Positions 9,887-13,731 of a DNA stretch of 64,000 nucleotides are shown here, in pieces. Position numbers and translations under genes: made by a program. The DNA comes from Deltaproteobacteria bacterium (GTDB lineage Bacteria; UBA10199; GCA-002796325; JACPFF01). Each line of letters begins with the position of its first letter. Within the stretch, counting starts at the first letter, position 1. The notes under the pieces were generated by a model. The model made no database searches. It was not told the DNA's origin and saw only the letters and a program-made list of their open reading frames with translations. Where the stretch lies: contig JACQUX010000019.1 in the NCBI GenBank assembly GCA_016210045.1, positions 4,102 through 68,101 of the forward strand. The letters are read 5' to 3'.

Positions 9887-10255
9887 TCAATCCGACACCG
9901 TCACAAAAGGGCGAATCTTTTCTAATACGCGCGGACCGATGCCCGAAACGGCCAGCAACGCGTCGCTGGTGGCGAACGCGCCATGCTGCGCGCGGTGTTG
10001 CACAATCCGTTCGGCCAATGCCGGACCGATGCCTGGCAGCAACGCCAACGCCGCGGCGTCGACGTGATTGATGTCGAGACGTTGCCCCAACAAGATTTGC
10101 GTCTCGGGGCGCGTCGCCGCGTGAGTTGGCAGTGTGTAGGCCTGCGGCAGTGGCGTGGCGGCCGGCGGCCACCACAGTGTGCCGGCCACCGCAACGGCCA
10201 ACAGCGTCGTCGCGGCCAGTAACGGCGACACGGAGGCCGGCCGAGCGCAGCTCAT
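9887..10255 (-). CDS. comEA: ComEA-like helix-hairpin-helix DNA-binding protein
   Basis: [29 protein letters not shown]...[15 protein letters not shown] tandem HhH motifs; signal/anchor N-terminus. Confidence 0.75.
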
Positions 10256-11478
10256 GGCTGCCTCGCCGCGTCCAGACCGAACGCGTGATGCAACGCGTTC
10301 ACGGCCGTGCGCATTTCGTGCATGTCGACGACCACGGAGACCTTAATTTCAGACGTGGAAATGAGTTGGATGTTGATCCCGGCCGCGGCCAACACATCGA
10401 ACATCCGCGCCGCAACGCCGGCGTGGGAACGCATCCCGATCCCGATAATCGAGATCTTCGAGACATCGCCGGCCGCTTGCACTTGGCGCGCGCCGATCTC
10501 CCGAGCTGCGGCTTCGCTGACCTGCATCGTCTTTTTCAAATCTTCCTTCGCAACCGTGAACGCCAACTCCGACTCCCCCGCCTCGTTCTTCGTCTGGACG
10601 ATCATGTCGACATTGATATTGGCGCGGGCCAATGGCTCGAACAGCCGTGCCGCCAGACCAGGTCGGTCGGGGATTTGCCGCACCGCGATCTTCGCTTCGT
10701 TAACGGTGTACGTCACAGCCGAGACCAAAGTAGCTTCCACACGCGGATCATCGGTTGTGACACACGTCCCCGGATCAGATGTTTCGATCGCGGAGCGGAC
10801 GTGGAGCGGGATTGCGAAGCGGGCCGCAAGCTGCACGGAGCGCATTTGCAGCACTTTTGCGCCGGCACCGGCCATTTCGAGCAGTTCTTCGTACGCCATC
10901 CGTTCAATTTTGCGCGCCTGCGGACAGACATTTGGATCGGTGGAATAAATGCCGTCCACGTCGGTGTAAATTTCGCACTGCTCGGCGTGGCAAGCCGCCG
11001 CAACTGCGACGGCCGAGGTGTCGGAACCGCCGCGCCCCAACGTGGTAATCGCGCCGTTCTCGTCGACGCCTTGAAAGCCGGGCAGTACCACGACGTGCCC
11101 CGCTTCCAATGCCTGCAAGATGGGCGTCGTCTGGATCCATTGAATGCGCGCGCGGCTAAACACGCCGTCGGTGAGGATCGGGAGTTGATAGGCCAAAAAG
11201 GAGCGCGCTCGCACTCCGCTCCGTTCCAATGCGCACGCCAACAGACCGACGGTCACTTGCTCCCCGGTGCTGACGACGACATCGGCTTCGCGTTCGTTCG
11301 GTTCCGGCGCTACGGCCTGGACCAGGCCGAGCAGTCGATCGGTTTCCCCCGCCATTGCGGAGACGACGACGACGACGCGATGCCCCGCCGCGCAAGTCGC
11401 CGCAACGTGCGCGGCGACCCGTCCGATCCGCTCCACTGAGCCGACCGACGTGCCGCCATATTTTTGTACGATCAGCAT
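10252..11478 (-). CDS. lysC: Aspartate kinase
   Basis: [15 protein letters not shown]-terminus, kinase core, two C-terminal ACT domains; 408 aa. Confidence 0.9.
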
Positions 11479-11484
11479 GATCTG

Positions 11485-12186
11485 TTATTTCGCCGGCATT
11501 TCGGTGACGAACAAGCGTTCCACCACTTCATACGTATCGGGATCGATGTAGCGATCTGCGGCGCTGATCCCGGTCCCCTCGACCATGGCTTGATGGATCA
11601 CCACGTCGGCGTAGTCTTCCAAACGGATCTTACTCTGCAACTCCGGCCGATCGCGCAACACCGGTTGGAGGATCCGTTGCACCGGCACCGCGATCCGTTG
11701 CACGCGATACCCGCGCTGCTCATAGAATTCAATGAAATCCTGTAATGAGTTCGTGGCCAAATAAATCTTCGCGTCCGGGACCCGCCCCATATCGCCGCCG
11801 TAGGCCTCGGCCATCTTTTCCTTTAGACGTTGCGTTAAGTCCTCGGCCATAAACGCACCCGGCGGGATCGGTGGCGGCTTGCTGGTCGCTAAATCGGTCA
11901 GCAGCTCGTCCGGTTCCGGCGTGGTCGGGAGCCGCACCGGTGGTTTCACCGGCGGCGTCGGCTCGTGTTTCGCGACGGTAACGGGCGGTTTCACTGGTGG
12001 GGTCGGTGGGGGCGGCGGCGGCTCCGGCTGCGGGAGTTGCAACACCAACGCCGGACTTTCCACCGTTGTCACCCGATCCCGCCCCGCCCACGGACAGCCG
12101 GAACAGGAGGGAAGGAGGGAAAGGCAAAGTGCAAAATGCAAAATGCAAAGTGCAAAATGACGGATCGGGGTCCGCCAATTTTGCAT
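11485..12186 (-). CDS. Secreted/lipoprotein with Pro-rich linker (PEPPPPPPTPPVKPPV...) and an uncharacterised C-terminal domain
   Basis: Signal-like N-terminus (HFALCILHFALCLSLLPSCSGC) encoded by the heptad palindrome; Pro-rich spacer. Start uncertain (12186 or 12207). Confidence 0.55.
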   Translation of the reverse strand: MQNWRTPIRHFALCILHFALCLSLLPSCSGCPWAGRDRVTTVESPALVLQLPQPEPPPPPPTPPVKPPVTVAKHEPTPPVKPPVRLPTTPEPDELLTDLATSKPPPIPPGAFMAEDLTQRLKEKMAEAYGGDMGRVPDAKIYLATNSLQDFIEFYEQRGYRVQRIAVPVQRILQPVLRDRPELQSKIRLEDYADVVIHQAMVEGTGISAADRYIDPDTYEVVERLFVTEMPAK

Positions 12187-12215
12187 TTTGATTTTTGCAT
12201 TTTGCATTTTGCAAT
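12124..12215. repeat. AT-rich imperfect palindrome built from TGCAAAA heptad repeats (4-5 units per arm, 20-nt spacer)
   Basis: Read directly: GCAAAGTGCAAAATGCAAAATGCAAAGTGCAAAATGA ... TTTTGCATTTTGATTTTTGCATTTTGCATTTTGCAAT. Confidence 0.85.
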
Positions 12216-12345
12216 ACCCGCCATTACCCCCGCTTCGGCGTCACCTTATGGACCGCAAACCCCGCCGCATCGATTCGCTCGCACCGGCACAGCCGGATGC
12301 TCGCTAAAGTCGGGGGAAGCCCCGCTCCCCCCGACCCCCCCCATC

Positions 12346-13731
12346 TTAGGGGCGTTTCGGCCCCACTTTATGCACGGCAAACCCTGCCGCATCTTCGACG
12401 GCTTCTTTTACCACTTCGCTCAAGGTGGGGTGGGAGAAAATGGTGTGGGCGACGTCTTCGACGCTCAGGCGCTGCTGGATCGCGAGACAGAGTTGCTGTC
12501 CGAGATCCGTGGCCTCCGCACCGATCACATGGCCGCCGAGCAGCACGCCATTTTCATCGGTGTAGACTTGGGCCGCGCCGTCGGTTTCACCGGCGCACAG
12601 GGCCTTGCCGACCGCGGCATAGGTAAAGCGGCCGGTTTTGTAGCGCACGCCGGCGGCTTGTAGGCCTTTTTCCGTTTCGCCCACCGCGCAGACTTCCGGC
12701 GTCGTAAACACGGGACGCGGGACGGCGTGATAATCCATCGTGACGTGACCGCCCAAACAATTCTTGACCGCCACTTCGGCCTCCGCCGATGCGACGTGCG
12801 CCAGCATCATCCCGCCGACGACGTCGCCGATGGCGTAGATGCCCGGCACGGTGGTTTGCATCCCGGCATCGACCGGAATGAAGCCGCGTTCATTCAGCAA
12901 GCCTAACGCCTCGGCGCCGAGCCCTTCGGTGTATGGTTTGCGTCCCACCGACACCAACACGCGATCTGCCTCGACACGCGTCCCATTCGCCAACGTGGCG
13001 GCTGCGCCATTGGTCGTCTCCAGCTGCTCGACCGTGGTGCCGGTGTGCACCGTAATACCGCGCTTGGCGAAGCTGCGCGCCAACGTGCGGCCGATGACTA
13101 AGTCTTCGCCGGGCAGCAGACTTTCCGTCGCTTCGACCAGTGTCACTGCGGCGCCGAACGATTGCATCATGCTCGCAAACTCGCAGCCGATAATGCCTCC
13201 GCCGATGATCAGGAGTCGCGCCGGGACGTGTTGCCATTCCAACATGTGATCGCTAACCACCACGGTCGTGCCGTCGATCGGCAATCCCGGCAGCGTGCGC
13301 CACGTCGAGCCGGTGGCAATGATGATATTTTTCGCCGCCAACGTGTCGCCGTTGACGACCACTTGACCCGCTGCAGGGATGCTGGCCGTGCCGCGAATCA
13401 GTTCGACGCCGTGCCCTTTTAACAGCTGCTCCACGCCCCCGCGCAACATCGTGACGATCTTGTTTTTCCGTTCCATCAGCGCGGCCACGTTGATGCCGAG
13501 CGCGGCCGGATCGACCCCTTGCACGCCGAATGTCGCCGCATGTCGCACCGCTTCGAGCCGCGTCGCACTGGCAATCAAGGCCTTGCTCGGAATGCAGCCG
13601 ACATTCAGACACGTCCCGCCGGCGTGGCCCTTTTCGACTACCGCCACGCGTTCCGCCCCATACTGCCGTGCCCGAATGGCTGCCACATAGCCCCCCGGAC
13701 CCGCGCCCACCACAATCAGATCATAGCTCAT
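12346..13731 (-). CDS. lpdA: Dihydrolipoyl dehydrogenase (E3)
   Basis: MSYDLIVVGAGPGGY FAD motif, redox-active CLNVGCIPSK disulfide, NAD-binding and dimerisation regions; 461 aa. Confidence 0.9.
   Translation of the reverse strand: MSYDLIVVGAGPGGYVAAIRARQYGAERVAVVEKGHAGGTCLNVGCIPSKALIASATRLEAVRHAATFGVQGVDPAALGINVAALMERKNKIVTMLRGGVEQLLKGHGVELIRGTASIPAAGQVVVNGDTLAAKNIIIATGSTWRTLPGLPIDGTTVVVSDHMLEWQHVPARLLIIGGGIIGCEFASMMQSFGAAVTLVEATESLLPGEDLVIGRTLARSFAKRGITVHTGTTVEQLETTNGAAATLANGTRVEADRVLVSVGRKPYTEGLGAEALGLLNERGFIPVDAGMQTTVPGIYAIGDVVGGMMLAHVASAEAEVAVKNCLGGHVTMDYHAVPRPVFTTPEVCAVGETEKGLQAAGVRYKTGRFTYAAVGKALCAGETDGAAQVYTDENGVLLGGHVIGAEATDLGQQLCLAIQQRLSVEDVAHTIFSHPTLSEVVKEAVEDAAGFAVHKVGPKRP

Follow-up and report, generated by a model that had tools for sequence, protein, structure and literature searches.

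A heptad-repeat palindrome at the 5' end of a predicted lipoprotein gene, probably a co-opted copy of a dispersed repeat family

Fusions between open reading frames (ORFs) and MITEs (miniature inverted-repeat transposable elements) have been described, and one of them, Yersinia YPO1552, has a signal peptide that is partly MITE-derived (Delihas; PMC2229807). Here we consider a 64,000-nt stretch of DNA (the window) from a Deltaproteobacteria bacterium (contig JACQUX010000019.1), in which a palindrome built of TGCAAAA heptads lies across the 5' end of a predicted lipoprotein gene. All coordinates are those of the window, and the gene lies on the minus strand. Like this element, the YPAL/RU-2 and MITE fusions involve dispersed palindromes that give a long stem-loop transcript and lie mostly between genes but sometimes in frame within them, and, once translated, their hydrophobic sequence makes up part of a signal peptide (PMC2229807). 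Unlike YPAL, the present element has arms of tandem 7-nt units rather than unique sequence, its spacer differs from copy to copy, neither a target-site duplication nor TA ends could be shown for it, its three frames are open and equivalent, and it occurs in uncultured bacteria of high GC content. Rickettsia palindromic elements (RPEs) offer another parallel, in that a conserved gene tolerates a palindromic insert that is missing from its orthologues; RPEs, however, are unique sequences of ~100-150 bp within protein bodies, whereas the element described here forms or replaces an N-terminal leader and its start codon.

Intergenic heptanucleotide repeats are also on record, among them GGGAATC in Xanthomonas and GGGGAYT in Nostoc (PMC4692102) and TAACTGA in Beggiatoaceae (PMC4679880). 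Together with the cyanobacterial short tandemly repeated repetitive (STRR) sequences, these resemble the present element in having tandem 7-nt units in 2-6 copies, in being strongly enriched between genes, and in occupying the same junctions in related genomes with varying length and sequence; inverted pairs occur among the Xanthomonas heptamers as well. In contrast to them, the TGCAAAA unit is AT-rich in GC-rich genomes, it forms a near-invariant convergent pair of an A-rich arm (A-arm) and a T-rich arm (T-arm) around a spacer, and its T-arm is repeatedly translated as the core of a signal peptide, while TAACTGA has forward stop codons. Correia/NEMIS and ERIC are likewise palindromic repeats at gene junctions that are co-transcribed, and their RNA hairpins can alter how stable neighbouring mRNAs are or how they are processed; but Correia and ERIC also have terminal inverted repeats of a defined kind, TA duplications and known effects that involve RNase III or mRNA, none of which was seen here. 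The REP/BIME palindromes, too, are short, imperfect and found past stop codons, with terminator or mRNA-stabilising roles proposed for REPs; yet REPs are GC-rich, 20-40 bp long, tagged with GTAG or CGTC and linked to REP-associated tyrosine transposases (RAYTs), whereas the present arms are AT-rich and tandem, and many end in GTAA...TTAC.

The best-supported assignment from this comparison would make the window element a variant of the known in-frame fusions of palindromic repeats with genes (RPE, YPAL): it is a dispersed palindromic repeat that stands in frame in a conserved gene, with orthologues that lack the insert. It also appears to belong with the poorly understood intergenic heptamers of Xanthomonas, Nostoc, Beggiatoaceae and Calothrix (PMC4692102, PMC4679880), as it has the tandem 7-nt units and the recurrence at many unrelated, mostly intergenic loci of a heptanucleotide simple sequence repeat. 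Terminal inverted repeats and a stem-loop transcript are shared with MITEs, but near-identical full-length copies with a conserved interior were not found, and the arms (AT-rich, 28-40 nt, with GTAA ends or none) are not those of REP/BIME.

We propose that the palindrome is probably a copy of a dispersed heptad-repeat family, co-opted as the start and signal peptide of a conserved lipoprotein gene. The gene and the parts of the element are as follows.

11485..12207, minus strand: conserved lipoprotein gene, 240 aa, with predicted signal peptide, Pro-rich linker and alpha/beta C-terminal domain
12214..12243, minus strand: outer right stem of the extended palindrome, holding the C-terminus of a relic of lpdA (VTPKRG, then stop), the TAATG overlap and a TTG at 12214
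TAA 12226-12224 and ATG 12224-12222, minus strand: TAATG stop/start overlap inside the outer right stem
12179..12213, minus strand: A-rich 5' arm, TGCAAAA TGCAAAA TGCAAAAA TCAAAA TGCAAAA, with in-frame ATGs at 12207-12205 and 12186-12184; encodes MQNAKIKMQN, the predicted signal-peptide n-region
12160..12178, no strand assigned: GC-rich spacer with a 6-bp apical stem-loop (GGCGGA/UCCGUC on the minus strand); encodes WRTPIR
12123..12159, minus strand: U-rich 3' arm of about five (A/C)TTTTGC heptads; encodes HFALCILHFALC, the predicted signal-peptide hydrophobic core
12092..12122, minus strand: outer left stem of the extended palindrome; encodes LSLLPS/CSGCP, a lipobox-like signal-peptide end

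Read directly on the plus strand, the left arm (12123-12159) is GGCAAAG TGCAAAA TGCAAAA TGCAAAG TGCAAAA TG, the 19-nt GC-rich spacer (12160-12178) is ACGGATCGGGGTCCGCCAA, and the right arm (12179-12213) is TTTTGCA TTTTGA TTTTTGCA TTTTGCA TTTTGCA. Tandem Repeats Finder assigns the two arms a period of 7 with 5.7 and 5.1 copies, and repeat finders also detect a 21-bp sub-periodicity, about two helical turns, in the window arrays. Matches to a heptad 13-mer (two or fewer mismatches) number 10 in the window, eight of them at the palindrome, against a mean of 1.29 in shuffled sequences, none of which attained 10 in 100 trials. The window has a GC content of 60.2%, and the palindrome is one of its six islands of at least 40 nt with 30% GC or less. 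An inner inverted repeat has 30-nt arms with 90% complementarity; because a wider imperfect pair (12097-12158 with 12178-12239; 62 nt, 76%) encloses this core, the palindrome is ~150 nt long. An earlier note on this DNA had described a 90-bp palindrome of TGCAAAA heptads, and the direct reading, the repeat finders and the folds all bear out its reality but not that extent. The minus-strand fold that the note had put forward as a check gave a strong hairpin, with -44.5 kcal/mol for the core (12120-12216; z -8.6) and -75.9 kcal/mol for 12090-12245 (z -8.7); the plus strand of the latter segment folds at -80.5 kcal/mol (z -9.7). An Rfam scan of the element returned generic hairpin (miRNA-precursor) matches only, at 15-34 bits against cut-offs of 60-184, and a promoter and terminator scan made no call at the palindrome. 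A fold-back assembly artefact was considered and rejected as unlikely, because the arms are inexact reverse complements and the same architecture recurs in independent assemblies at other loci.

The ORF at 11485-12207 is a real and conserved gene for a predicted lipoprotein. Its 16 homologues have in common an N-terminal leader ending in C-x-G-C-P, a Pro-rich linker and a C-terminal domain of ~125 aa; the LLPS/CSGCP of the window protein aligns with the lipobox Cys, which is conserved in 14 of the 16. The coding region of the C-terminal domain (window 11485-11860) lies in every case between lpdA (or glnD) and lysC, and AlphaFold models it as an alpha/beta domain with pLDDT >90 and residues 14-30 of the protein as a helix. 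The lipoprotein had no match in Pfam, NCBIfam, a PDB sequence search or Foldseek against PDB, and an exhaustive profile search with the 40-aa leader returned eight weak matches only, which were uninformative.

The translation of this ORF opens with MQNAKIKMQN... and continues into HFALCILHFALC, the former from one arm and the latter from the other, just as the earlier note had read it, and the palindrome thereby supplies both the start codon and the predicted signal peptide of the lipoprotein. The only in-frame starts upstream of the lipobox are the ATGs at 12207 and 12186 and one TTG that would leave a 12-residue uncharged leader; the start codon is therefore placed in the A-rich arm, within the -44.5 kcal/mol stem, where the note had also put it. 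The leader carries 2-4 Lys/Arg and no Asp/Glu, a charge like that of orthologue signal peptides, and its maximum 9-residue hydropathy is 2.48 as compared with 2.54-3.08 in orthologues. In the homologue alignment a VT.V.S motif and the lipobox Cys are conserved directly past the U-rich arm, which upholds the proposal that this arm encodes the hydrophobic core. All three reading frames are open across the palindrome, each with a start codon at its 5' edge.

Copies of the same type were recovered from metagenome contigs with an exact pattern, (TGCAAAA)x2.9 = TGCAAAATGCAAAATGCAAA. Among the matches listed, more than 120 metagenome contigs carry this pattern, and at least 72 of the listed contigs have 55% GC or more, where by our estimate fewer than one match is expected by chance; in a viral collection, 34 stretches carry the TGCAAAA repeat. 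TGCAAAA arrays, for which the earlier note had proposed to search the genome, thus exist in numbers on metagenome contigs, although none further was found in the 64-kb window. The layout is that of an A-rich arm, a variable spacer and a T-rich arm, with the units TGCAAAA, TTCAAAA, TGCAGAA, TGTAAAA and TGAAAAA intermixed, and among the matches listed the A-arm precedes the T-arm in 38 cases as against two in the opposite order (p = 1.5e-9). Spacers range from 8 to 110 nt (median 32) and are mostly GC-rich, about half of them being without a stable hairpin; one sub-group has a common GGGGTGAA…TTCACCCC core. Many copies end in GTAA/TTCAAAA…TTTTGAA/TTAC. In 27 of 48 cases 0-12 nt separate the end of the upstream gene's stop from the A-arm, and most copies lie between ORFs, beside unrelated genes, the flanking genes being tandem in 31 cases, convergent in nine and divergent in four. 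Several contigs hold two or three copies. No paper with the repeat, its reverse complement or its translated peptides turned up in the searchable literature, and the family is apparently widespread and undescribed there.

Five loci (L043, L048, L052, L060 and L108) were also seen to share a spacer of ~70 nt with a conserved hairpin core, ACGGGGTGAA-N10-13-TTCACCCC, and the shared core suggests that some family members have a structured or mobile centre. A 98-kb contig of the viral collection, IMGVR_UViG_3300033121_001564 (GC 0.64; L138, L142, L151), holds at least three copies, with the GTAA…TTAC ends and with TGCAAAG variant units as in the window. Long one-sided (TGCAAAA)n arrays occur in AT-rich giant-virus bins. 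A search with synthetic heptad peptides returned mostly short spurious ORFs and a few named sources (Thermoanaerobaculia, Chloroflexales and others), too sparse for a taxonomy.

The translation of a T-arm as a leader is not confined to the window. Thirty-nine T-arms have a gene leading away from them, and 19 of these are open in frame with it; by inspection and re-translation, at least seven independent loci have an N-terminal leader whose hydrophobic core is T-arm sequence.

Window and L001
L078 and L086, orthologues with flanks of 67% nucleotide identity: …FCILHFAFCMTAVQA/QQQ and …FAFCILHFAFASGASA/QGP
L035 and L062
L121: …FAFCILHFAFFLAAC, with lipobox FFLAAC
L048: …ILHFASEASA/QQ
L128
L054

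In the remaining cases a clear start codon lies past the arm, which is left untranslated. In (TGCAAAA)3 each of the three frames has an ATG, and the sequence encodes C-K-M-Q-N-A-K and has no stop; (TTTTGCA)3 encodes F-C-I-L-H-F-A in all three frames, again with no stop. The hairpins are retained in the orthologue pair L078/L086. TAATG or ATGA stop/start overlaps stand at the 5' edge in the window (with the relic stop), L001 and L121, a sequence arrangement that suggests coupled or co-transcriptional initiation. Membrane or secreted genes follow family members in about 17 of 39 cases by eye, too weak a figure for a claim of enrichment.

Orthologous junctions show how the lipoprotein gene begins in related genomes. 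In eight orthologue loci from the genome collection there is no heptad palindrome and the signal peptides are ordinary, and in most of the eight lpdA lies directly 5' of the lipoprotein gene, the junction in L006 being TAAGTG. A palindrome over the start is found in three orthologues, each with different units: in the window, in L001-L003 (TGAAAAA x3 facing TTTTGCA x4, with no GC spacer), and in L004 (CACCAAA-type units with 44-nt arms and a 20-nt spacer). The L001 transcript folds no better than shuffles (z -0.16); L001 keeps the T-arm-encoded peptide but has lost the hairpin. Among L001, L002 and L003, which come from three datasets, there are no more than three substitutions and no indel in 12.7 kb, and the same-species contig L013 has an A-arm identical to that of the window. 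At another junction, with orthologous gene ends and flanks ~84% identical, L063 (860-1000) has ACTCAAA units and L066 (6500-6660) TCCCAAA units with a TTTTGCA arm; because these arrays differ, unit types turn over fast at a fixed junction.

The lpdA-lipoprotein junction of two lower-GC relatives, L008 (~1230-1330) and L012 (~2590-2680), was observed to hold unrelated GC-rich, REP/MITE-like palindromes (for example GTCATCCCCGCGAAAGCGGGGAT…ATCCCCGCTTTCGCGGGGATGAC), and on that account the junction is a recurrent home for palindromic repeats. The short-read (Logan) contigs L013, L014, L015 and L004 end inside or beside palindromes; the full-length window protein is absent from the protein collection because short-read contigs stop there, and heptad palindromes are likely to be under-represented in assemblies.

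The neighbours of the lipoprotein gene bear on how the element may have come to lie within it.

12346..13731, minus strand: lpdA (dihydrolipoyl dehydrogenase), conserved upstream neighbour
10252..11478, minus strand: lysC (aspartate kinase), conserved downstream neighbour, beginning 6 nt past the lipoprotein stop
12224..12290, minus strand: decayed duplicate of the lpdA 3' end (…DAAGFAVHKVTPKRG, then stop), which through a deletion lacks 19 nt of the live copy
12309..12335, minus strand: 13-bp GC-rich hairpin followed by UUUAG, just past the present lpdA stop (12346)

In most relatives lysC lies 3' of the lipoprotein gene, and lpdA, the lipoprotein gene and lysC form a conserved cluster without intergenic room at the first junction. 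The relic of the lpdA 3' end (12224-12290 against the live 12346-12415) has 83% identity over 41 nt, with the 19-nt deletion further upstream; its TAA overlaps an ATG (TAATG), and 8-9 nt separate the end of this stop from the A-arm, just as stops are spaced from A-arms in the family. Neither this placement of the relic stop nor membership in a dispersed family is in the earlier note. The relic frame is open from the region of the live lpdA stop, one base offset from the lpdA frame. The hairpin at 12309-12335, distinct from the palindrome, is another candidate for a terminator or stabiliser of lpdA; beside it, at ~12334, L013 and the window differ by a one-base indel (T) next to a G-run, and they are otherwise 99.97% identical over a 3.4-kb overlap.

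Family elements normally reside in gene junctions of GC-rich environmental bacteria, a few bases past a stop codon, and in the window lineage a copy may have lodged at the junction of lpdA and the lipoprotein gene. Because lpdA abuts the gene and leaves no intergenic room, the element would there have become the gene's 5' end. The A-rich arm, with an ATG in every frame and codons for Lys, Asn, Gln and Met, would provide the start codon and a positively charged n-region, and the T-rich arm, which reads as Phe, Cys, Ile, Leu, His and Ala in every frame, the hydrophobic h-region; given this composition and the lack of a stop in any frame, the element would be a ready-made signal peptide once translated. 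Its leader would then have been joined to the gene's own lipobox, LLPS/CSGCP. The RNA hairpin is presumably a property of the element and not a device evolved for the lipoprotein gene; since it would hinder free ribosome loading, translation is probably by co-transcriptional or coupled initiation, and heptad slippage would alter the choice of start codon rather than silence the gene.

Several observations weigh against this account. The window holds one copy only, so that family membership rests on other genomes. No flanking direct repeat (target-site duplication) was found at the window copy, the TAA/TTA at the ends of other copies can be assigned to the element or to the target, and no transposase or other copying mechanism was identified for the family, known here from contigs. 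Copies have unrelated spacers, and different heptads occur at orthologous junctions, for which reason arrays could arise in place, by slippage and template switching, and not by insertion. The lipobox has a Pro at -2, outside the consensus [LVI][ASTVI][GAS]C, and is non-canonical. In the leader, GC at third codon positions (GC3) is 0.38 as compared with 0.74 in the rest of the gene, with rare AT-ending codons retained, and the T-arms of the window and L001 are identical at 26 of 26 nt while the proteins are ~57-60% identical. This identity and the AT-ending codons hint at selection on the nucleotide sequence itself, unlike what is expected of a passively tolerated insertion.

A junction terminator, attenuator or RNA-stability hairpin is the best functional guess for the whole family, since it fits both the polarity of the arms and their stop-adjacent placement, and such a function could coexist with a coding role. 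It would have an A-tract, a hairpin and a U-tract act alike on both strands, with a ribosome that starts in the A-arm blocking the hairpin and read-through to the lipoprotein gene and lysC made dependent on translation. The A-to-T arm order in 38 of 40 cases, valid for both strands by symmetry, and the start of arrays 0-12 nt past stop codons agree with this; GC-rich hairpins (-10 kcal/mol or lower) form in roughly half of the spacers, the 6-bp GC stem of the window spacer is followed by AUUUUGCACUUUGC, and arms are often of non-identical units, as would fit a need for A/U-richness over perfect pairing. The other half of the spacers, however, have no stable hairpin, arrays of 28-35 nt far exceed what a U-tract needs, and gene orientation (31 tandem, 9 convergent, 4 divergent) is near a generic intergenic mix. 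In the window the position past a relic stop fits a terminator; the inner stem has 6 bp only, followed by AUUUUGCA, and the terminator scan did not call it; a separate 13-bp GC hairpin already lies 3' of lpdA, and strong termination would cut off lysC, 6 nt past the lipoprotein gene in a conserved cluster. The suggestion in the earlier note that the palindrome could be a terminator for lpdA is weakened by these points, and we consider the broader junction function possible, though improbable as the explanation of this locus.

Translational control was likewise raised in the note; a dedicated element of this kind might be an RNA thermometer or a helicase- or protein-opened switch, selected for hiding the ribosome-binding site and start codon. 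The start codons do lie within a -44.5 kcal/mol stem, palindromes of differing sequence occupy one position in the window, L004 and (degraded) L001, and the hairpins persist in L078/L086; but because most orthologues have no palindrome and L001 has lost the hairpin (z -0.16) while keeping the T-arm peptide, a gene-specific regulatory hairpin is disfavoured, the more so as this type of element is mostly intergenic and beside unrelated genes and matches no Rfam family, and we think it quite unlikely. An ON/OFF contingency tract, in which gain or loss of heptads shifts the frame of the lipoprotein, draws on a unit that is not a multiple of 3, on tandem arrays prone to slippage, and on unit numbers that vary between species at orthologous loci. 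Simulated gain or loss of one or two T-arm heptads or of one A-arm heptad, however, always kept an in-frame start (ATG 12224, TTG 12214 or ATG 12207), an open frame and a leader of like kind; with five units the arrays are short, L013 has an identical A-arm, and L001, L002 and L003 show no indel among at most three substitutions in 12.7 kb, albeit in few contigs compared. Because the arrays are frame-robust and are identical in near-identical contigs (few, and short-read assemblies break there), phase variation is disfavoured and would surprise us greatly. Nor did anything come to light to support the iteron- or response-regulator-like site that the note had also entertained, a DNA-binding array on which a protein would recognise convergent TGCAAAA units. 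The conservation of the unit across many contigs, its strict convergence and the 21-bp sub-periodicity, about two helical turns, are what such an array might show, yet neither a protein partner nor a linked gene was identified, the units are freely variable (TTCAAAA, TGCAGAA, TGTAAAA), unrelated heptads occupy orthologous junctions, and the promoter scan found no promoter-like sites nearby; we regard this reading as very improbable.

A bolder form of the co-option account would make the heptad palindromes an undescribed, widespread class of element in GC-rich bacteria that is maintained at the nucleotide level, serving as frame-independent cassettes of a start codon in all three frames, an n-region and an h-region. 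Because of their hairpin, the protein encoded downstream, which is often exported, would be translated only by co-transcriptional or coupled initiation, and new signal peptides would come from palindromes that regulate as well. We find this reading unlikely. Co-option of a family copy, the account we prefer, would itself offer a concrete route from a non-coding repeat to a protein-targeting signal, in which an AT-rich palindrome reads as Lys/Met-rich and then as hydrophobic sequence, and such co-option appears to have been repeated in unrelated genes of uncultured GC-rich bacteria. The family matters in practice as well, as it breaks short-read assemblies and misleads gene callers, with many spurious "MQNAKCKMQN.../FAFCILHFAF..." ORFs, and its strict A-to-T polarity and stop-adjacent placement call for a functional explanation.

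Elsewhere in the window, two arrays of 8-nt units (CACTTAAG / GCACTTAA; ~4.5-4.8 copies) were noted in like orientation at 59098-59141 and 59577-59614. In the spc operon of ribosomal-protein genes, they fill, on the minus strand, the rpsN-rpsH and rpsH-rplF spacers and stop just 5' of the rpsH and rplF start codons.

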